Below are positions 7,912 to 15,734 of a DNA stretch of 52,599 bases, one piece after another (position 1 is the stretch's first letter; the number at the start of each line of letters is the position of its first letter). The stretch spans positions 1 to 52,599 of the IMG/VR virus record IMGVR_UViG_3300046791_000268; one strand, given 5' to 3'. The translations under genes and the position numbers were made by a program. The stretch is from a virus. Taxonomy: Duplodnaviria > Caudoviricetes. The notes under the pieces were generated by a model. That model made no database searches, was not told where the DNA came from, and was given only the letters and a program-made list of their open reading frames with translations.

Positions 7912-8294
7912 GTGAGCCGTTGTAACCGCTAGCGGTGTGACGGGCAACGGTGGACGCGTAAGAGCGCTGACAGTCTGTGCGGAGGCGATGATGAGCAAGG
8001 CTAAGAGCACGGGGAAGGCGAAAGCCAAGCTCAAGGGCAAGGTCAACGCGAGCGTGTACACGCAGGCTAAGAAGTCCAGGGAGAGCTGTGTGGGTCGCGT
8101 GTGCTCGAAGCCGGGGTGAGCGTTCGAGGCTGGGCGTAGGGAGGGCACTGGACGCTCTTGACCCCGCGTACGTCTGCGAAAAACACGCCAACCCATCGAA
8201 GACGCGCGCGCGGTGTCATACACCGACCGTGGCCGAGACGTACGCGAGCGCGTGCAGCGGCGGCCTCCTCCTCCGCCTCACCCTCTGCCTCTGC

Positions 8295-8515
8295 GGTACC
8301 ATTCGGCGCACACATCGCACTCAGCGCACATCAGCGTAGCGTGCGCGCGCGATCCCCGGTGTCCGCTCACGGTCCCATTCGGCGCATCTGCACACATCGT
8401 CAGGGCGCAGCGCACGTCGGCTCTGGGCGCACTGCGTACGATTCGGCGCTGTCTGTGGGCGCTGTGTGTGTGGCGTGCTGTGTACGGCCTGTGCGCTCAG
8501 CGTACGATTCGGCGC
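8295..8515 (+). repeat. Four direct repeats with core ATTCGGCGC in an apparently non-coding region
   Basis: Core at 8301, 8377, 8441, 8507; GGTACCATTCGGCGC, GGTCCCATTCGGCGC and two GCGTACGATTCGGCGC. Confidence 0.7.
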
Positions 8516-8581
8516 ATTCTCCTGCGTTCCCCTCTGGTGGGCTGTGTGGGTTGGGCTGTGTGGGTTGGGCGCTGTGTGCGA

Positions 8582-8845
8582 TTACGCGAACACTCCGCAC
8601 TGGCTCGCGATCTTGCGCGCCTGCGCAAAGCATTCGTGGGCGCCCACGACGTTCTGTAGCTCCGCTTGTAGGTCACGGCAGGCGTTACCGATGCCTGCTA
8701 CGCCGCTGGCGTTCCACTCGCTCGCAAGCGCCTGGGCGAACCAGGCGCCGCTCTCATAGTGCAAGCACCACACACGGGCCCGCAGCTTGATCGCGCTGGC
8801 GATGATGGCGGCCTGTGACTCGGTTACGGCGTGCTTGCTGTTCAT
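8582..8845 (-). CDS. Hypothetical cassette protein
   Basis: ATG 6 nt after the -10 of element copy 13. Confidence 0.75.
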   Translation of the reverse strand: MNSKHAVTESQAAIIASAIKLRARVWCLHYESGAWFAQALASEWNASGVAGIGNACRDLQAELQNVVGAHECFAQARKIASQCGVFA

Positions 8846-8851
8846 ACTCAT

Positions 8852-8889
8852 ATCCTAGCACGTCACTGAATACGTGCAACAGCTTTTCA
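8852..8889 (-). promoter_or_regulatory. Repeated element copy 13
   Basis: tgaaaagctg-TTG-cacgtattca; TTGCAC-16-TAGGAT. Confidence 0.85.
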
Positions 8890-8909
8890 GCTGTGCCCCC
8901 GTATTCAGT

Positions 8910-9161
8910 TCAGCGGCTGGCGATCGTCCAGACGTAGTGACCAGCGCGGTTAGCGGCTTCCTGGCCCTTGACCAGCCGGCCCTGCATCGTCTGGCCCGTC
9001 AGGCGGCGCGATGCCAGGCGAGCGGCTGTCACCAGCTCCGCTTGACGGTCGGTCGCGCTGATGTCCATCGCCAGGGCGAACTTGCCGTTGACATACGCAT
9101 TGTAGAGCGAGCCCGTGACGGTGGGTGACTGGTAGCAGAGCGTGATTTGCTTTGTGTTCAT
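8910..9161 (-). CDS. Hypothetical cassette protein (83 aa)
   Basis: Leaderless ATG after copy 14. Confidence 0.8.
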   Translation of the reverse strand: MNTKQITLCYQSPTVTGSLYNAYVNGKFALAMDISATDRQAELVTAARLASRRLTGQTMQGRLVKGQEAANRAGHYVWTIASR

Positions 9162-9167
9162 ATCTAG

Positions 9168-9205
9168 AGATTAGCACGCGTATGATTACGCGCAACAGTA
9201 AATCA
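9168..9205 (-). promoter_or_regulatory. Repeated element copy 14
   Basis: tgatttactg-TTG-cgcgtaatca; TTGCGC-16-TAATCT-6 nt-ATG. Confidence 0.85.
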
Positions 9206-9220
9206 GCACTGTGCACAAAC

Positions 9221-9248
9221 TAAAAGAGCGAGCCTCGCGGCCCGCTCT
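9221..9248 (-). terminator. Rho-independent terminator
   Basis: Minus strand agagcgggcc-GCGA-ggctcgctct followed by TTT. Confidence 0.6.
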
Positions 9249-9270
9249 GTGTGCGCTCAGTGCGCAGCCC

Positions 9271-9501
9271 TTAGAGGGCGCCCAAGGCGCGCAAGGTAAG
9301 ATTGCGCTCCTGCCATTTGTGGAGCATGCGATCGATTTCGCGCGCAGGCAGTGTGTGCGCATAGGCCTCGATTACAGCAAGGCTGGCCGCCTCGTATTCC
9401 TCGCGCATGGTGCGCTCTTGGGCTGTGCCGCAGGCTTGCGCCAAGCGGTCATGCGCGGTCACGAGGTTTTGGGTGGCGACTTTGATTTGCGTGCTGTCCA
9501 T
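9271..9501 (-). CDS. Hypothetical cassette protein (76 aa)
   Basis: Leaderless ATG after copy 15. Confidence 0.8.
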   Translation of the reverse strand: MDSTQIKVATQNLVTAHDRLAQACGTAQERTMREEYEAASLAVIEAYAHTLPAREIDRMLHKWQERNLTLRALGAL

Positions 9502-9507
9502 ATCTAG

Positions 9508-9545
9508 AGATTAGCATCACTCTGAATATGTGCAACACGAAATCA
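9508..9545 (-). promoter_or_regulatory. Repeated element copy 15
   Basis: tgatttcgtg-TTG-cacatattca; TTGCAC-16-TAATCT-6 nt-ATG. Confidence 0.85.
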
Positions 9546-9630
9546 GCATGGTAGGCGCGATCGGGGTGCGATTTACGGCGGCGCCTCAAGTCGGCTGAGT
9601 ACGTCTCGGCTGCGTTAGAGAGGTGAGAGC

Positions 9631-9894
9631 ATGGCTACAGTAGCTGAACACCTCGCAAGGCTGACTGCACAGCGCGCCTCTATGCGTGGCGGCTTTCTGA
9701 CCCCCAAGGAGGGGGCGGCCGCGGACCTGAGACGCGCGCGGCAGGCCGCTGGGCGCGACAAGATCGCAGAGCGTGCGAAGGCCAAAGCTGACGCCAAACA
9801 GCGCCGCCTTGCACGGGGCGCCTATGGCAACGCTCGCCAAATGAGCCTGTTTGGGCGCCTCTTGGGCGGCACGGCCAGCGGTAAATCGGGCTGA
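9631..9894 (+). CDS. Small basic Arg/Ala-rich protein ending -SGKSG
   Basis: SD GAGGTG; strongly basic composition. Confidence 0.75.
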   Translation: MATVAEHLARLTAQRASMRGGFLTPKEGAAADLRRARQAAGRDKIAERAKAKADAKQRRLARGAYGNARQMSLFGRLLGGTASGKSG

Positions 9895-9976
9895 CTACGC
9901 TTGTCATTGGATGGCCTACGCACGTCATACAAGCGTAGTGCACACATCTGTACTCATGACGTAGGAGGGCTAGCGT

Positions 9977-10384
9977 ATGGCTCGCAGATTCGTAAGCAGC
10001 ACGCCAGCCGCCAAATCGCTGGGTGTAGGCAAAGACGGCAAGCCGCTCACCAAAGCCGCCATCAAAGCAGGCATAGCCAAAACACGCGTAGCCACGGCCG
10101 CACGCAATGCCGCATCGGCCGCCGCAGGCACAGCCGCCTACAACAAGATCTTCGGTAAACAAGCCTTGGCCGCTGGCAAGGCGAAAGTCGCATCACGTCG
10201 CATACGTGACTCGCAATCCCTCAAGAAGGCCAACAAGACCGCTGTAGGTAAGCGCCGTGTGACGTTCCTAGGCGACAAGCGGGGCGGCGCCGCACGTGCG
10301 AAGGCTGCGGCAGGGGTCCTAGCCGCAAGCCGCGGTGGAGGCGCTGGGCTCGTTCTCAAGCTCTCTGGCAGCAAAGGCGGATAG
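9977..10384 (+). CDS. Small basic Lys/Ala-rich protein ending -SGSKGG
   Basis: SD AGGAGG; very few acidic residues. Confidence 0.8.
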   Translation: MARRFVSSTPAAKSLGVGKDGKPLTKAAIKAGIAKTRVATAARNAASAAAGTAAYNKIFGKQALAAGKAKVASRRIRDSQSLKKANKTAVGKRRVTFLGDKRGGAARAKAAAGVLAASRGGGAGLVLKLSGSKGG

Positions 10385-10393
10385 GGTACACCC

Positions 10394-10741
10394 ATGCCTA
10401 CCAGCCCCGATATCGACCCCTACAGCCCCTGCCCTGATCCCATCATCGAAAGCACGGGCTATCCTACAGAGGATTTCCTGCAGTGGCTCAGTGTGGCAGA
10501 CGACCACAAAGCCATCATGCGTGCGGTACTCGCCTACTTCAGCGAAGTCGCCTACGGGTCCATCACACGCGTTTACGCTGACAGGGTAAGCCTTGCTACG
10601 GGCGGATGGTCCGGGTGCGAGGATGTGATCGCCTCCCTACACGACAATGTACGCTTTTGGCACGATTGCTGGGAGGAACAGCACCGTGGCGGAAAGTGGG
10701 TCTTTGAAGTCGAGGGCCTACAGCTCCCCGGCAACGATTGA
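10394..10741 (+). CDS. Conserved-looking acidic phage protein
   Basis: LATGGWSGCE...FWHDCW...RGG motif. Confidence 0.75.
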   Translation: MPTSPDIDPYSPCPDPIIESTGYPTEDFLQWLSVADDHKAIMRAVLAYFSEVAYGSITRVYADRVSLATGGWSGCEDVIASLHDNVRFWHDCWEEQHRGGKWVFEVEGLQLPGND

Positions 10742-10743
10742 GC

Positions 10744-11652
10744 ATGTGTATGGGTAGCCCTCGTGCTGACGCACCCACACAGCCCCGTAAACGTCGCACC
10801 TCCACCCAAGTGGTACGCGCTGAACTAGCCCGGGTTACAGGCCTCCTGCTGCTGAGCCGCAAGCGCATGGAGCGCGTGTCGGCACTTTCGCACGATCGCG
10901 TGATGGTGGGGCTTTCTGGGGGCAAAGACAGCCTTGTCACACTGGACCTGTGCTGTAAGTACATCTCTCATGTAGAAGCCTACTACATGTACTTGGTCCC
11001 CGGCCTAGAGGCGTTCGAGTGTCACGTGGATGCCGCCGCTAAGCGTCACGGTATCAAGGTGCACAAAGTACCGCATTTCGACCTAGCAAGGCTCGTCAGG
11101 CACGCTGTGTTGCGACCGCCTACCAAGGGGTGCAACACGCTACGGATCATGCAATTGCGCGACATTGAGTTTGCGTTGCGCGATCGCACCGGCATCACCT
11201 GGATGGCCATGGGTGAGCGTGCAACGGACAGCTTCAATAGGCGTTTTTACACACGTCGCAATGACGGCATTGACGAACGTGTGCACCGCACTTACCCGAT
11301 ATGGGATTGGTGCGACAGAGACGTATACGGCTACCTACGCGCGCGAGGCATCAAGCCCCCTGACAATCGGGGCTACCAGAAAGCCCGTGTACGCGTCAGT
11401 GGCTTTTCGCTCTCTGGACAGTGTCTATCCTGGCTCAAGGTAGAGCATCCCAGAGATTACAAGCGTGTGCTCCGCGTATTCCCTTACGCTGACAGCGAAA
11501 TCCGCAAGTATGAACTCCGACAAGAAAGCGCACGCGACCAAGATCAAGGCGCTGCAAGACTATGTGCGGGAGTCTATCCCGACACAGAGCCCGACACAGA
11601 GCACGCTTCCCACAGCGAACCAGGTCAGCAAATACCAGACGTTCATCACTGA
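10744..11652 (+). CDS. PAPS reductase-like PP-loop adenine nucleotide alpha-hydrolase
   Basis: VGLSGGKDS PP-loop, GERATDS..RR, YPIWDW..DVYGYL; start uncertain (10738-10867). Confidence 0.85.
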   Translation: MCMGSPRADAPTQPRKRRTSTQVVRAELARVTGLLLLSRKRMERVSALSHDRVMVGLSGGKDSLVTLDLCCKYISHVEAYYMYLVPGLEAFECHVDAAAKRHGIKVHKVPHFDLARLVRHAVLRPPTKGCNTLRIMQLRDIEFALRDRTGITWMAMGERATDSFNRRFYTRRNDGIDERVHRTYPIWDWCDRDVYGYLRARGIKPPDNRGYQKARVRVSGFSLSGQCLSWLKVEHPRDYKRVLRVFPYADSEIRKYELRQESARDQDQGAARLCAGVYPDTEPDTEHASHSEPGQQIPDVHH

Positions 11653-12376
11653 GCGCGTACACCGTAGCCAGATTGCGCTTGCGGACTACAACCCGCGCAC
11701 CATGGACGATGAAGCCCGGGGCAAGCTACACGCGAACCTAAAGACGGTCGGGCTGGTCGCTGCGCTTACGTGGAATCGTCGCACAGGGAACCTTGTTGCA
11801 GGTCACCAGCGCATCGCAGAGCTGGACGCGCTCGAAGGTAGCCAGGACTACTACCTGGATCTCAATGTCGTAGACCTGGACGAAAAAACCGAACGCGAAC
11901 AAAATATATTTTTGAACAATCGCGCCGCCCAGGGCGATTACGACGTGCTCAAAGTCGCCGAACTTTTTTCTGACAAAGTGCTAGAGCTGAACCCCGCGGC
12001 CGCAGGCTTTGGCGCGCTGGACCTACAGCTGATGTTCGATGAAGCCGGGGTGGGCATGTTCAGCGATACGGAGGGCCTAGCCGCCATCGATGAACTCAAG
12101 GCCATGGGCGCCGAAAAGAGCACCAAGCGCCACGCGGATCGCGCACCGGGCGAAATGCCCAGCCGCGCAGTGGTAGGCGAGCTGGGCCTAGACGAGCGCG
12201 AAGCCACGGAAGAAACCGAGACGATGAGTGTTATCGTGTTTCTCAATCCCAGGGAACGCGCTGTGTTTCTCGCCGCCATGGGCTGCGATGAACATCAGCG
12301 CTATGTCGACGGGTCCGCGGTGTTTGCGAAGCTGGGCATTGACCCCTCGGAAGCCTGGGCCAGCGAGCTGGGCTAG
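11510..12376 (+). CDS. ParB/Srx-like protein
   Basis: ADYNPR...GLV...WNRRTGNLVAGHQR; start uncertain, overlaps the 3' tail of the previous ORF. Confidence 0.85.
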   Translation: MNSDKKAHATKIKALQDYVRESIPTQSPTQSTLPTANQVSKYQTFITERVHRSQIALADYNPRTMDDEARGKLHANLKTVGLVAALTWNRRTGNLVAGHQRIAELDALEGSQDYYLDLNVVDLDEKTEREQNIFLNNRAAQGDYDVLKVAELFSDKVLELNPAAAGFGALDLQLMFDEAGVGMFSDTEGLAAIDELKAMGAEKSTKRHADRAPGEMPSRAVVGELGLDEREATEETETMSVIVFLNPRERAVFLAAMGCDEHQRYVDGSAVFAKLGIDPSEAWASELG

Positions 12377-12750
12377 AACTGGACGCTTTGCAGGCGCACG
12401 CGGCGCTGAGCTTTGGAGCCGTTGCGGCGCGTGTATGCGATAAGCGCGCTGGTCGCGCACGCGCGGACCACACGCCCCGTCCACGATCCGAACATTCCGC
12501 GCTGGAATGTCACCAGCTGACCGATGGCCGGCTGCGATCGGCAGCCGTTGGCGACGCAGTAGCCATCCCAGTGCGCGAGCACGCGCGCCGCACTCGACAC
12601 GTCGAGCGCTATCGATGCCTCGCCCTGGCGGCCGCCGCTGAATACCACGTACCCCGCCTCAATCCGCGCGGATAGCCGCAGGCCGTTCTGTGCCAACTTC
12701 AGTTCAGTGACCAGTTTCGCAATCCGTGTCTCTGTGTTGTTTGCGTCCAT
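12373..12750 (-). CDS. Hypothetical cassette protein (SH3-like C-terminus)
   Basis: Leaderless ATG after copy 16; IGQLVTF...TGRVV pattern. Confidence 0.8.
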   Translation of the reverse strand: MDANNTETRIAKLVTELKLAQNGLRLSARIEAGYVVFSGGRQGEASIALDVSSAARVLAHWDGYCVANGCRSQPAIGQLVTFQRGMFGSWTGRVVRACATSALIAYTRRNGSKAQRRVRLQSVQF

Positions 12751-12756
12751 GTCTCT

Positions 12757-12794
12757 ATGCTAGCAGGCCTCTGAAAGAACGCAACACATAATCA
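12757..12794 (-). promoter_or_regulatory. Repeated element copy 16
   Basis: tgattatgtg-TTG-cgttctttca; TTGCGT-16-TAGCAT-6 nt-ATG. Confidence 0.85.
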
Positions 12795-12814
12795 ACGGTC
12801 TGGGCTGGCGGAGT

Positions 12815-13150
12815 TTACCAGGGCGCGACACTTAGGATGTCTGCTAGGTGCACAAAATCCGCTTGACACGCGCGCGCTTCCGCCTCGGTCGCGTGTTGCC
12901 TCTGACTGTCGTGCGCGATTTCGTGCGTCCCGTGCCAAAAAATGGTCGTCTCAAAAATCAGCGGCGGCTCCGCTACGTAGTCCGCGCTATCAGACCGATA
13001 CGGATCGAAGCCCGTCCAGATCGTGGCCACGCGAAACTCGTTAACGGTCTGGTCCGCAAGGAACCGATAGGCGCGATCTTCGAACAGCTCAGCCCAGCGC
13101 TGTAGCGTGATGGGCCGGCCCTCGCGGTCAAAGTAGTGATCCATGGTCAA
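12815..13150 (-). CDS. Conserved hypothetical phage protein
   Basis: YFDREGRPI...VATIWTG.D...PLIFETTIF pattern. Confidence 0.75.
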   Translation of the reverse strand: MTMDHYFDREGRPITLQRWAELFEDRAYRFLADQTVNEFRVATIWTGFDPYRSDSADYVAEPPLIFETTIFWHGTHEIAHDSQRQHATEAEARACQADFVHLADILSVAPW

Positions 13151-13542
13151 GCCTTTGTCGGGGGCTGGGGCAGAGCCTCGTCAGCTTCTGCGTGGGCCGC
13201 GGCGAACGCAACAGCGTCGGCTTCCGCGTAGACTTTGACGAACACAAGCGCGTCCCCAAGGTTCATGTCCGCGCACATCGCAACGCCCCGGATCGCTCTG
13301 GCGAGTACGCCAAGCGCGTCCCATGGGCCGGGCTGGATAACCGCAGCGTCAAATGCCAAGTTCGCAGAGCGTTTCCACTGAGCTTGTCGCGCTTCGGTGA
13401 CTAGCGTTTCGTTTGGTAGCGGCGGCTCAGCGAGTACAAGCATTGTAGCCAGATCCGCCTCGGTCACTTCTACGGGTCGGCTTTGTTGTGCCCGGCTGGC
13501 GCCGTAAGCATGGTTGCGCGGCCCTCGATTGCGTCGGCTCAT
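13147..13542 (-). CDS. Hypothetical protein
   Basis: Tightly packed leftward operon. Confidence 0.65.
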   Translation of the reverse strand: MSRRNRGPRNHAYGASRAQQSRPVEVTEADLATMLVLAEPPLPNETLVTEARQAQWKRSANLAFDAAVIQPGPWDALGVLARAIRGVAMCADMNLGDALVFVKVYAEADAVAFAAAHAEADEALPQPPTKA

Positions 13543-13544
13543 GG

Positions 13545-13802
13545 TCAGGCCTTCTTTCTGGCGCGCCGCGCCTCGCGTTCAATCGCGTTGACCAGCCCCG
13601 CATGTGCGGCCGCTGACACGCTGAAAAGCGTGTGCACATCGGGCGGCTGTTCGTTGGGTTGCAAGTATTCACGCCGCAACGATCCGTCAGCGCCGCGGAC
13701 AATGACCGTGCACAGCGCGTTACTCCACCCCGGCCCTGACGCGTACTCACAGAACGCCGTCACGATGCTTTCATCCGCCGCAATCTTCATCCCCACGGGC
13801 AT
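13545..13802 (-). CDS. Hypothetical protein
   Basis: Tightly packed leftward operon. Confidence 0.65.
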   Translation of the reverse strand: MPVGMKIAADESIVTAFCEYASGPGWSNALCTVIVRGADGSLRREYLQPNEQPPDVHTLFSVSAAAHAGLVNAIEREARRARKKA

Positions 13803-13813
13803 GCCACGGCTTT

Positions 13814-14392
13814 ATGGCGATTGTCAAAATGAACGATGCGCTCAGGGAACAGATCCTGGGCGCCATCCGCGCAGGCGTACACCCGACAGAAGCGTGCACA
13901 GCCGCAGGCCTTGACCGCTGCTACATGTATGAGGCGCGCCGCCTCGCACGCAATGGCAGCGCCACGTCGCTGGCGTTCCTTGAGGCCGTGGCCCAGGCCT
14001 CCGCGCTCGCCGAAGTGGACGACGTTCTCACCACGAAACGCGCCGCGAAAGTCGAAACGGTCGCGCTCGTGTGCCCCGAATGCAAGGCGCCGTTTCACGG
14101 CGATCCGGTCCAGCTCGCCAACGTGCTGGGCGCCGCCGAAACCGCGCAGCGCGTGAAAGCCAGCGCCGCTGGCATCGCGATGACGCGGCTAGAGCGTCGG
14201 TTTAGTCAGCGCTGGTCACAGCGCGTAGTCCACACGGTCCAGGAAGAACACGAAAGACTGCTCAATGTCGCAGAGCGGATTCTTGCGCCAGAAGTTTTCG
14301 AGCTACTCCTTGAAGAATACATCTCTTCAAGCGGCGGCGAAGACGCGCCTGAAGACGATCAGGGCCCAGCGCCCCGGGCAGGCGTTCACTGA
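13814..14392 (+). CDS. terS: Terminase small subunit (putative)
   Basis: N-terminal HTH (ILGAIRAG...ACTAAGL), LERRF..RW motif, directly upstream of terL. Confidence 0.7.
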   Translation: MAIVKMNDALREQILGAIRAGVHPTEACTAAGLDRCYMYEARRLARNGSATSLAFLEAVAQASALAEVDDVLTTKRAAKVETVALVCPECKAPFHGDPVQLANVLGAAETAQRVKASAAGIAMTRLERRFSQRWSQRVVHTVQEEHERLLNVAERILAPEVFELLLEEYISSSGGEDAPEDDQGPAPRAGVH

Positions 14393-15734
14393 ACCGCTCA
14401 TGTCGTTCATCCCGCTGGTAACACCGCGGTGGACGGCTCCGACCCATCTAGCTCCCTACGTAGACATTCTAGAACAGGCGCCGGGAGGCGGGTTACGCGT
14501 AGTCTTAGCAGCCCCGCCCCAACATGGCAAGACAGAGGCCACAATTCATGCGTTTGCGTGGTGGATTCGTAAGTTTCCCCACCTACGCTACGCCTACGCT
14601 ACGTATAGCCAGGATCGGTCATACCGTGTAGGGCGCCGCGCCAAAGTGTTAGCGGAACGCGCAGGCGTCGAGCTGGACACGGCCAACATGGGCCTCTGGC
14701 TCACCCCACGTGACGGGCAAGTGCTCTGGACGTCAGTAGGCGGCGGTCTAACAGGTGAGCCTGTTGACGGTGTGTTTGTCATAGACGACCCGCTGGCAGG
14801 CCGTAAGGAGGCCGAAAGCCCCACGATCCGCCAAAACCATAAGGATTGGTTTCACGGCTCTGTCGAAACCCGCGTACACCCCGGCGCATCCATCATTGTG
14901 ATGGCCACGCGCTGGCACGCGGACGATTTGTCCGGCTACTTGGTGCGCGAGCAAGGGTTCACCTACTGCAATCTGAAGGCGATCGCGGATGAAAACCGCC
15001 CAGCGGGTGACAATCGTCAGATAGGCGAGGCGCTATGGGAAGCAGAGCGCCCGCTGACGATGTTGCAAGAGCGTCAAAAGGGAAATATTTGGAACTTTGC
15101 ATCGCTCTATCAAGGCGAGCCACGGCCCCGTGGCGGCGCGCTGTTTCGCGAGCCTACCTACTTCACTCAGCTACCTGCTAGCGGCTTCCGGGTCACGCTG
15201 GGCGCTGACCTGGCCTATTCCGAGAAGACTCACGCAAATTTCTCGGTGCAAGTCGAGATTTGGGCTGTGCCCCCGCCTCCCGCGCGAGGCGCGCGCAGGC
15301 CTGAAGAATGGGCCTTTTACATCGTGGATGTGACCCGCGTGCAGGTAGAAGCGCCGGCTTTCACCATGCTTCTGCTCAAAAAGCAGCGACAGCGCAACGC
15401 GAACACGTACTGGTACGCAAGCGGCACGGAAGCCGGCTCAGCGTCGTTCATTCGCAGCAAGGGCGTGCGCTTGATCGTGATGGACCCTGGCGGCCGCGAC
15501 AAGCTTACACGCGCGCAACAGTCAAGCTACCTGTGGAACTTGGGGCGGATTCTCGTGCCTGAAGACAATGAGCGCTACCCCTGGGTAGATGTGTTCGTCG
15601 ACGAAATCACCTCGTTTACAGGCGTCAAAGACCCACAAGACGATCAGGTAGACGCGCTTGTCAGTGGCATAGATGCCGCCCTGCGCGGCACGCATGACAT
15701 GCAGGTGCAGGGCAGCGGCGGACGCTACGCCTAG
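14265..15734 (+). CDS. terL: Terminase large subunit
   Basis: Walker A APPQHGKT, Walker B VFVIDDP, MATRWHADD, nuclease GADLA and DDQVDAL; true start probably further downstream (about 14399). Confidence 0.95.
   Translation: MSQSGFLRQKFSSYSLKNTSLQAAAKTRLKTIRAQRPGQAFTEPLMSFIPLVTPRWTAPTHLAPYVDILEQAPGGGLRVVLAAPPQHGKTEATIHAFAWWIRKFPHLRYAYATYSQDRSYRVGRRAKVLAERAGVELDTANMGLWLTPRDGQVLWTSVGGGLTGEPVDGVFVIDDPLAGRKEAESPTIRQNHKDWFHGSVETRVHPGASIIVMATRWHADDLSGYLVREQGFTYCNLKAIADENRPAGDNRQIGEALWEAERPLTMLQERQKGNIWNFASLYQGEPRPRGGALFREPTYFTQLPASGFRVTLGADLAYSEKTHANFSVQVEIWAVPPPPARGARRPEEWAFYIVDVTRVQVEAPAFTMLLLKKQRQRNANTYWYASGTEAGSASFIRSKGVRLIVMDPGGRDKLTRAQQSSYLWNLGRILVPEDNERYPWVDVFVDEITSFTGVKDPQDDQVDALVSGIDAALRGTHDMQVQGSGGRYA

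Follow-up and report, generated by a model that had tools for sequence, protein, structure and literature searches.

A five-gene cassette around a PP-loop/ParB pair

The virus record IMGVR_UViG_3300046791_000268 (Duplodnaviria; Caudoviricetes) was analyzed over its positions 1 to 52,599; this whole stretch of 52,599 nucleotides (nt), with a G+C content of approximately 61%, is hereafter referred to as the window. Between positions 9631 and 12376, it carries five open reading frames (ORFs) on the + strand, encoding two basic proteins (b87 and b135), an acidic protein (ac115), a PP-loop protein, and a ParB/Srx-like protein (Table 1). The same five co-directional genes had been named in an earlier description made from the letters alone (the sequence-only reading), and our ORF listing agrees with it in both gene kinds and positions. 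In related loci, we found a three-part phage module, which consists of one or two Gly-tailed microproteins, a PP-loop ATP pyrophosphatase without conserved cysteines, and a mostly acidic ParB/Srx-like protein. The arrangement of this module, its conservation, the coupling of its genes, and its placement before terminase were all observed. The enzyme pair is already known as an uncharacterized pair of the IbrA/IbrB kind; the new component, as far as sequence comparisons indicate, appears to be the Gly-tailed microprotein as a third partner.

Table 1. Features of the cassette and of the region preceding it in the window
Feature	Position	Strand	Description
b87	9631..9894	+	87 amino acids (aa), basic ORFan, Gly/Ser-rich end, last residue Gly
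b135	9977..10384	+	135 aa, basic ORFan, Gly-Gly end; tail at nt 10334-10381
ac115	10394..10741	+	115 aa, acidic, isoelectric point (pI) 4.4; large, mostly viral family
PP-loop protein	10750..11652	+	300 aa from ATG at 10750; ORF opens at 10738 (TTG, 304 aa)
ParB/Srx-like protein	11510..12376	+	288 aa from ATG at 11510; ORF opens at 11465 (GTG, 303 aa)
Divergent intergenic region upstream of b87	9502..9630		likely cassette promoter region; carries part of the repeat copy 9483-9548

The PP-loop protein matched the Pfam family PF01507 (42.7 bits, cut-off 22.5, E-value 7.8e-11) and two PHROG families annotated as phage PAPS reductase, phrog_424 (E-value 3e-20) and phrog_2302 (E-value 5.5e-20). Overall, 76 homologues were detected at E-value ≤1e-3, the closest having 64% identity; the protein itself is present in the public collection in its 300-aa form, starting with the ATG at 10750. 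The SGGKDS motif, located at nt 10915-10932, was invariant in all 36 aligned relatives (36/36), as were several Arg, Trp, Tyr, and Asp residues. With a profile score above the cut-off and the SGGxDS signature, the protein belongs to the PAPS_reduct superfamily, and its identification as a PP-loop enzyme in the sequence-only reading holds. No cysteine was invariant in the 36-sequence alignment; the best-kept ones, C68 (27/36) and C69 (19/36), are both situated beside the PP-loop helix. PF01507 was the only Pfam family found, with no second domain at E-value ≤0.01. The window enzyme and its closest relatives possess a basic N-terminal extension of approximately 30 residues, which is missing from most relatives.

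The AlphaFold model of the PP-loop protein had a predicted local distance difference test (pLDDT) value of 90.6; the last 40 residues were modeled poorly (block pLDDT 53-70). The best Foldseek matches were TtuA, NcsA, TilS, APS reductase, LarE, and CysH, with template modeling (TM) scores of 0.37-0.47, which correspond to a generic PP-loop likeness. The top rows were TtuA/NcsA sulfurtransferases, including an entry titled as TtuA with its carrier TtuB. The sequence profile matched TtuA across the PP-loop alone, and FAD synthase, CysH, and CysD were matched at E-values of 3e-4 to 3.5e-3. A match to BrxP in PADLOC was weak (E-value 3e-8) and confined to residues 53-80, i.e., to the PP-loop stretch.

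Two specific assignments were rejected. CysH proteins have a conserved catalytic cysteine near the C-terminus; the window enzyme was not considered a true PAPS/APS reductase (CysH) since no cysteine is invariant among its relatives and no CysH model of NCBIfam was matched at E-value ≤0.01. It was likewise not assigned to the phosphorothioation enzymes DndC, SspD, or BrxP, given the lack of conserved cysteines and the lack of matches to their partners (a cysteine desulfurase and DndD/DndE or equivalents) among the cassette proteins in Pfam, PHROGs, PADLOC, and NCBIfam. Behind the catalytic domain, many PP-loop relatives share a conserved motif in a C-terminal tail (alignment columns 330-393), and the window protein ends inside this motif. 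A 250-nt contig from a soil metatranscriptome (X12) corresponds to window positions 10838-11087, inside the PP-loop gene, with two differences; transcription is one possible source of this contig, and carry-over of DNA another.

The ParB-like protein matched phrog_9353 (E-value 1.2e-47), and its matches to ParB-like PHROG families spanned E-values from 1.3e-15 (phrog_620) to 3.4e-5. No Pfam family at E-value ≤0.01 and no sequence match in PDB were found for this protein. Its GHQR box is located at nt 11801-11812; the His, Gln, and Arg residues of the box were invariant in 21/21 sequences, together with an NPR motif and other alignment columns. The ParB/Srx-like identity proposed from the sequence alone is probable: it agrees with phrog_9353, phrog_620, and the GHQR box, against the empty Pfam and PDB searches. 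Depending on the start codon, 90-190 nt of the ParB-like ORF coincide with the 3' end of the PP-loop gene, and similar overlaps occur in several relatives. Among 24 ORFs flagged as ParB-like in related loci, 16 had a pI of ≤6.0. The ParB-like proteins of two loci, L030 (6479-7729) and L008 (6390-7640), are, unlike the others, extended at the C-terminus by more than 100 residues.

A Gly-tailed microprotein class beside the enzyme pair

Viral contigs were scanned with the enzyme alignment, which yielded 64 loci (L001-L064), and with the ParB alignment, which found 573 relatives, of which 80 loci were kept. A scan of viral contigs with the single enzyme sequence found nothing. Loci L033-L064 were weak enzyme matches and were excluded from neighborhood counts. 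Scanning of genome contigs by a generic PP-loop pattern produced 43 weak, mostly partial matches (L065-L107), which were not used; from a metagenome scan, L108 was usable, and L109 and L110 were not used. The resulting 111 loci were grouped into 67 clusters at 80% enzyme identity, a step that also handles contigs shared by both samples. ORFs in these loci were called by simple rules and not by a gene finder.

The two genes of the pair were adjacent in 26 of the 64 enzyme-seeded viral loci, and the PP-loop gene was directly upstream of the ParB-like gene in 78 of the 80 ParB-seeded ones, which bears out the earlier statement that such pairs occur in phages. The first large downstream ORF encoded the terminase large subunit in 37/48 cluster representatives, with several terminase families involved, and the portal protein in two.

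Directly upstream of the PP-loop gene, a small basic ORF was found in 59/67 clusters. The median length of these microproteins was 45 aa, and 32/59 started with Met-Ala. The last residue was Gly in 41/59 and the last two were Gly-Gly in 19; 38 had at least three Gly residues among the last ten, and in 51/59 Gly was present within the last three residues. As a control, 229 likely real, translationally coupled genes from the same loci were taken, of which only 27 (12%) ended in Gly, 4 (2%) in Gly-Gly, and 13 (6%) had at least three Gly residues in the last ten. Thus, conservation of a terminal Gly motif in the small basic neighbors of the pair, the question for which the sequence-only reading had proposed a neighborhood survey, was answered positively.

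A strict microprotein criterion was also applied: 28-140 aa, a Lys+Arg fraction of at least 0.18, an Asp+Glu fraction of ≤0.06, and at least three Gly in the last ten residues, with the ORF ending between 150 nt before and 40 nt after the point at which PP-loop homology starts. Among the enzyme-seeded loci, 15/33 had such an ORF (background 26/2886 ORFs, 0.38 expected), and among the ParB-seeded loci, 46/75 (background 20/4476 ORFs, 0.50 expected).

The pooled composition of the microproteins was dominated by Arg (15%), Gly (14.5%), Ala (13%), and Lys (10%), with any Cys in only 6/59; the peptides are probably disordered. One clearly homologous subfamily was recognized, having a common N-terminal motif and the end basic-basic-Lys-Ser-Ser-Gly-Gly-x-Gly-Gly. 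Across loci with G+C contents from 31% to 68%, the peptides kept their basic composition and Met-Ala start, and the motifs of the subfamily were likewise conserved. Tandem microprotein pairs, like that of the window, occurred in L003 and L014/L015, and in L026 the microprotein ORF was located just after the enzyme gene. Fourteen microproteins gave no PHROG or Pfam match at E-value ≤0.1. Five of ten that were looked up occur in a public collection, on up to 166 contigs, in all cases as "hypothetical protein". In 23/32 inspected loci, a start codon in the PP-loop frame was located within -4 to +12 nt of the microprotein stop codon; with stop and start overlapping or abutting in this way, the genes are considered translationally coupled.

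To place the trait on the phylogeny of the enzyme, a quick tree of 62 rows with a midpoint root was built (5/67 clusters with an enzyme segment shorter than 150 aa were dropped). The Gly tail was present in 47/62 rows, which are distributed over both halves of the midpoint-rooted tree. The window enzyme grouped with L001, L003, and L108 (support 95), next to L002, L004, and L030; Gly-tailed ORFs were present in all of these loci except L108. Five distant annotated phages were inspected, and in four of them, LR1, Pm86, BigBern1, and Morgana, no Gly-tailed ORF preceded the enzyme gene. The fifth, Riemerella phage RAP44 (HQ396194.1, L113 2339-2473), has an unannotated basic ORF of 44 aa directly before the PP-loop gene, without the Gly tail. 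Another type of tiny ORF, composed mostly of Gly and Lys in alternation, was observed a few hundred bases upstream of the microproteins in L014 (2018-2110), L015 (5450-5542), L018 (3159-3245), and L021 (4891-5295).

In the window, both candidates for this class had positive codon scores per codon in their own frame (b87 +0.07, b135 +0.17), against -0.11 to -0.40 for the overlapping alternative ORFs. Purine-rich ribosome-binding sites were found 5-8 nt before the ATG of both genes; that of b135 is a strong Shine-Dalgarno sequence 8 nt before the ATG. The Lys+Arg fraction was 0.22 in both proteins, and the Asp+Glu fraction was 0.07 in b87 and 0.02 in b135. The C-terminal ends are Ser-Gly in b87, with Gly at four of the last ten positions, and Gly-Gly in b135. 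Only six of the 748 ORFs of the window satisfy the strict microprotein criterion; b135 is among them, and it is the sole one in a supported coding frame adjoining the enzyme pair. b87 misses the criterion on the Asp+Glu fraction alone. Judging from these sequence features, b135 is probably the clearest Gly-tailed basic microprotein of the window and b87 a first copy of the class.

Searches with the two proteins themselves returned little. Among 5.8 billion proteins, b87 retrieved only itself, in a 70-aa form (23 candidates), and b135 only itself among 627 candidates in the protein collection. No tblastn match of b135 was found in phage records, and no relative was present among 65 pattern matches in viral contigs. 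Neither protein matched a family in Pfam, PHROGs, PADLOC, or NCBIfam, and a BLASTP comparison of b87 with b135 gave an E-value of 0.22. Functionally, we consider it likely that b135 and b87 belong to the conserved microprotein class.

Possible roles of the Gly tail

PP-loop superfamily enzymes move adenosine monophosphate from ATP to oxyanions or carbonyl oxygens. When a small protein with a conserved terminal Gly is encoded beside an adenylating enzyme, the simplest reading is that its carboxylate is the group to be activated. Together, the basic body and the acidic ParB-like partner suggest a role on nucleic acid, the location ahead of terminase suggests a role near the time of packaging, and the lack of conserved cysteines speaks against a DndC/TtuA-type sulfur insertion. 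In the mechanism we propose, the basic body would bind nucleic acid, the flexible Gly tail would enter the PP-loop enzyme, and the enzyme would adenylate the terminal carboxylate of the tail. At about the time of packaging, the activated peptide would then be transferred to an amine acceptor, carried either by phage DNA or by a DNA-bound protein, and the ParB-like protein may serve as a DNA- or nucleoside triphosphate-binding partner.

That the window cassette is a version of this module, working by tail adenylation and subsequent transfer, is the reading we tentatively favor, with less than even confidence. The single step in which the Gly terminus is the adenylated substrate is possible and, taken alone, still doubtful. 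In our ranking, tail adenylation with transfer to an amine acceptor would come first, and a non-covalent adaptor role of the microprotein a close second. A more far-reaching form of the proposal would be ubiquitin-type tagging without a ubiquitin fold: the PP-loop enzyme, and not an E1 enzyme, would activate the terminal Gly of the microprotein and attach the latter by a covalent bond to phage DNA, to a DNA-bound protein, or to a virion protein shortly before packaging, and the peptide mark would shield or condense the genome. We regard this form as decidedly unlikely.

Several results weigh against the adenylation reading. Neither b87 nor b135 had a detectable homologue in any search. A profile of 25 related microproteins missed both of them among 462 matches in the window at E-value ≤100, its best window match being an unrelated - strand segment (E-value 0.062), and BLASTP of b135 against the most similar-looking tail-bearing protein, the microprotein of L002, gave an E-value of 0.48. 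The lengths of the two window proteins are 2-3 times the class median, and ac115 sits between b135 and the PP-loop gene. In the class as a whole, 18/59 microproteins lack a terminal Gly, which would be odd for an obligatory C-terminal activation unless the peptide is trimmed first, and a few of the 59 ORFs are probably spurious. In coupled loci, the Gly codons coincide with the expected position of the Shine-Dalgarno sequence of the next gene, so part of the signal may lie at the DNA level. Finally, the acceptor, the ligase-like step, and the binding are, in our assessment, purely proposed elements of the module.

The alternative closest to the adenylation reading is that the microprotein acts non-covalently, as a nucleic-acid-binding subunit in the style of histone tails or arginine-rich motifs, by which the enzyme pair would be recruited or tethered to DNA or RNA. 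In that case, the tail would be no more than a flexible linker or a docking strand, and the enzyme would adenylate a base or another small substrate instead of the peptide. The Arg-, Gly-, Ala-, and Lys-rich, nearly Cys-free composition speaks for such an adaptor, and the tails without terminal Gly fit it as well as they fit a trimming step. An electrostatic pairing of the acidic ParB-like partners and the basic microprotein is conceivable; the N-terminal motif of the homologous subfamily, conserved besides the tail, points to selection beyond the C-terminus; and the basic N-terminal extension of the window enzyme and its closest relatives would be in line with such a role. What the adaptor leaves unexplained is the terminal Gly itself, last in 41/59 microproteins against 27/229 controls, and the 16-fold excess of terminal Gly-Gly. 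We therefore hold this explanation as possible, in a tentative sense.

It is rather unlikely that b87 and b135 are unrelated ORFans, e.g., DNA-binding or host-takeover proteins, which resemble the class by composition only. In such a case, the third part of the module would be missing from the window or replaced by the basic extension of approximately 30 residues on the enzyme. The lack of homology, the greater length, and the intervening ac115 noted above would all be accounted for in this way. However, b87 and b135 share with the class the strand, the upstream position, the composition, and the Gly end; b135 is one of the six strict ORFs out of 748 and the only one beside the pair in a supported frame; tandem pairs are known from L003 and L014/L015; and the nearest neighbors in the enzyme tree, L108 excepted, carry the trait.

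A further possibility is that the ORFs are leader or coupling ORFs with a functionless peptide, the Gly ends of which only mirror the G-rich Shine-Dalgarno sequence of the PP-loop gene. The overlapping or abutting stop and start codons in 23/32 loci, with Gly codons 5-20 nt before the PP-loop start, are compatible with this explanation. Against it, coupled control genes show the tail in only 13/229 cases and terminal Gly-Gly in only 4/229, and 12/17 uncoupled microproteins, i.e., ORFs with a stop codon 45 nt or more ahead of the PP-loop homology, still end in Gly. The tail Gly codons vary (GGC, GGT, GGA, and GGG), and the runs of 5-8 Gly, encoded mostly by GGC/GGT, exceed what a Shine-Dalgarno sequence needs. 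The composition, Met-Ala start, and motifs were moreover conserved across the whole range of G+C contents. The controls, the uncoupled ORFs, and the long GGC/GGT runs argue against the Gly tail being mainly a by-product of the Shine-Dalgarno sequence, and we consider this explanation very improbable.

Least probable is the sulfur-carrier option of the sequence-only reading, in which the Gly-Gly end would be thiocarboxylated as in TtuB, ThiS, or Urm1 and would supply the sulfur with which phage DNA is thiolated or phosphorothioated: the TtuA/NcsA sulfurtransferases at the top of the Foldseek rows, the TtuA-TtuB entry among them, and the weak BrxP match on the PP-loop stretch are in its favor, but the 36 enzyme relatives without an invariant cysteine can have neither an Fe-S triad nor a DndC-type dyad, the structural matches reach TM scores of only about 0.4, and no cysteine desulfurase, rhodanese, or E1-like protein was found among the cassette proteins in Pfam, PHROG, PADLOC, and NCBIfam. 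Among the seven window proteins scanned against Pfam and PHROG, no cysteine desulfurase or E1-like protein was detected either, the rest of the window having been partly scanned.

PAPS-reductase-like and ParB-like pairs are, to our knowledge, among the commonest unexplained phage cassettes. We take the cassette pair to be of the IbrA/IbrB type (names from E. coli). As in these likewise uncharacterized pairs, a PF01507 enzyme gene lies beside, and often overlaps, a co-directional ParB-like gene at the head of the packaging genes; the adjoining and overlapping genes of the window and the phrog_2302 match conform to this pattern. IbrA has an extra C-terminal domain, DUF3440. The window enzyme differs in being short and in having PF01507 as its sole Pfam family, and its identity to annotated phage examples is only 26-35%.

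The pairing of a PP-loop ATP pyrophosphatase with a small Gly-Gly-ended protein is shared with TtuA-TtuB and Ncs6-Urm1. The cassette differs from these systems in the lack of Fe-S cysteines, the low TM scores, the sequence match confined to the PP-loop, and the lack of an E1-like enzyme. The C-terminal Gly-Gly typical of the carriers is present in b135 and in 19/59 relatives but not in b87. The carriers ThiS, TtuB, and Urm1 are folded beta-grasp proteins, whereas the partner in the cassette is a basic low-complexity peptide. In the Pup-PafA system, a disordered tag ending in Gly-Gly-Gln/Glu is activated with ATP and ligated to lysines. Here, too, a small, apparently unfolded Gly-Gly-type protein stands beside a proposed carboxylate activator, and in some microproteins the Gly run is followed by one or two further residues. 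However, the enzyme superfamily is another one, the putative tag is strongly basic, and a ligase, deamidase, or target is not known, so the analogy is one of logic only.

A parallel in gene pairing comes from DNA phosphorothioation, in which, according to the available portions of PMC10853773 and PMC12839542, a ParB-superfamily protein and a PAPS-reductase-like PP-loop enzyme act on DNA; DndC carries a 4Fe-4S cluster on three cysteines as well as a cysteine dyad (PMC10853773, same portions). DndB-DndC, SspD, and BrxP thus share with the cassette the pairing of ParB-superfamily and PAPS-reductase-like PP-loop proteins. In contrast, the cassette has neither the cysteine triad nor the dyad, homologues of DndA, DndD, and DndE are missing among its proteins, and it is a phage late-region cassette instead of a host defense island.

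A Gly-tailed microprotein accompanying this pair was not mentioned in the available portions, supplements aside, of the literature searched, including PMC12839542, PMC10853773, PMC12704722, PMC9068703, PMC12323421, and bioRxiv 10.64898/2026.04.06.716658. Operons combining a YejK-like nucleoid protein with a PAPS reductase, as far as described in the accessible text of the last of these, offer only a loose parallel. PAPS-reductase-like/ParB-like pairs are usually labeled as sulfur metabolism, e.g., in the portions available from PMC12323421. An obligate-looking third partner, nameless in gene catalogs, provides a concrete hypothesis for the cassette. If the peptide is the substrate, it would represent a new mode of protein C-terminus activation and possibly a new DNA or virion mark, and covalent tagging, if confirmed, would be categorically new. 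If the microprotein is only an adaptor, it would still account for the way in which a small enzyme and its acidic ParB-like partner reach nucleic acid.

ac115, flanking genes, and repeats

The ac115 protein belongs to a family of 793 cluster representatives (E-value ≤1e-3), which are mostly viral and approximately 100 aa long. The family has the conserved motifs Gly-Tyr-Pro-Thr and Thr-Gly-Gly-Trp-Ser-Gly, and none of 40 members had a Pfam or PHROG family. The predicted model of ac115 was of high quality (pLDDT 91.3) and had no clear fold match, the best Z-score being 5.5. Homologues of ac115 were present in none of L001-L064 (BLASTP, E-value ≤0.01). Given this absence beside the pair elsewhere, we read ac115 as an insertion; it is probably an unrelated phage gene outside the conserved module.

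Near-identical copies of the region were found in several soil and rhizosphere metagenome runs, and no substitution pattern could be read from them. On both sides, the cassette is flanked by - strand ORFs with positive codon scores: those upstream stop at 9501, and four others lie at 12373-13802. The genes for the small (13814) and large (14265) terminase subunits follow, identified by PHROG, and then those for portal, protease, and major head protein. The sequence-only reading had placed the cassette shortly upstream of terminase. Its position 1.4 kb before terminase stands, but the two do not share a transcription unit, as four - strand ORFs lie between them; the cassette is a separate + strand unit.

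The divergent region between the upstream - strand ORFs and b87 is likely the promoter region of the cassette; a search for a sigma-70-like site in 9200-14000 found none. A 66-nt element (D1) occurs in three copies, at 8827-8892, 9143-9208, and 9483-9548, with 64-79% identity to the reference copy and spacings of 316 and 340 nt. Each copy covers the 5' end of a small tandem - strand ORF, and the third one falls in the divergent region upstream of b87. The element may be a repeated promoter or leader, or the copies may mark a paralogous gene triplet. Farther upstream, at 8284-8520, where no convincing gene was found, a 28-32-nt repeat is present in 3-4 copies and could represent an iteron-like or other binding-site array. 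As listed, the two terminase ORFs (13814-14392 and 14265-15734) overlap by 128 nt; since the PHROG match of the large subunit begins at residue 35, its real start is probably located further downstream.

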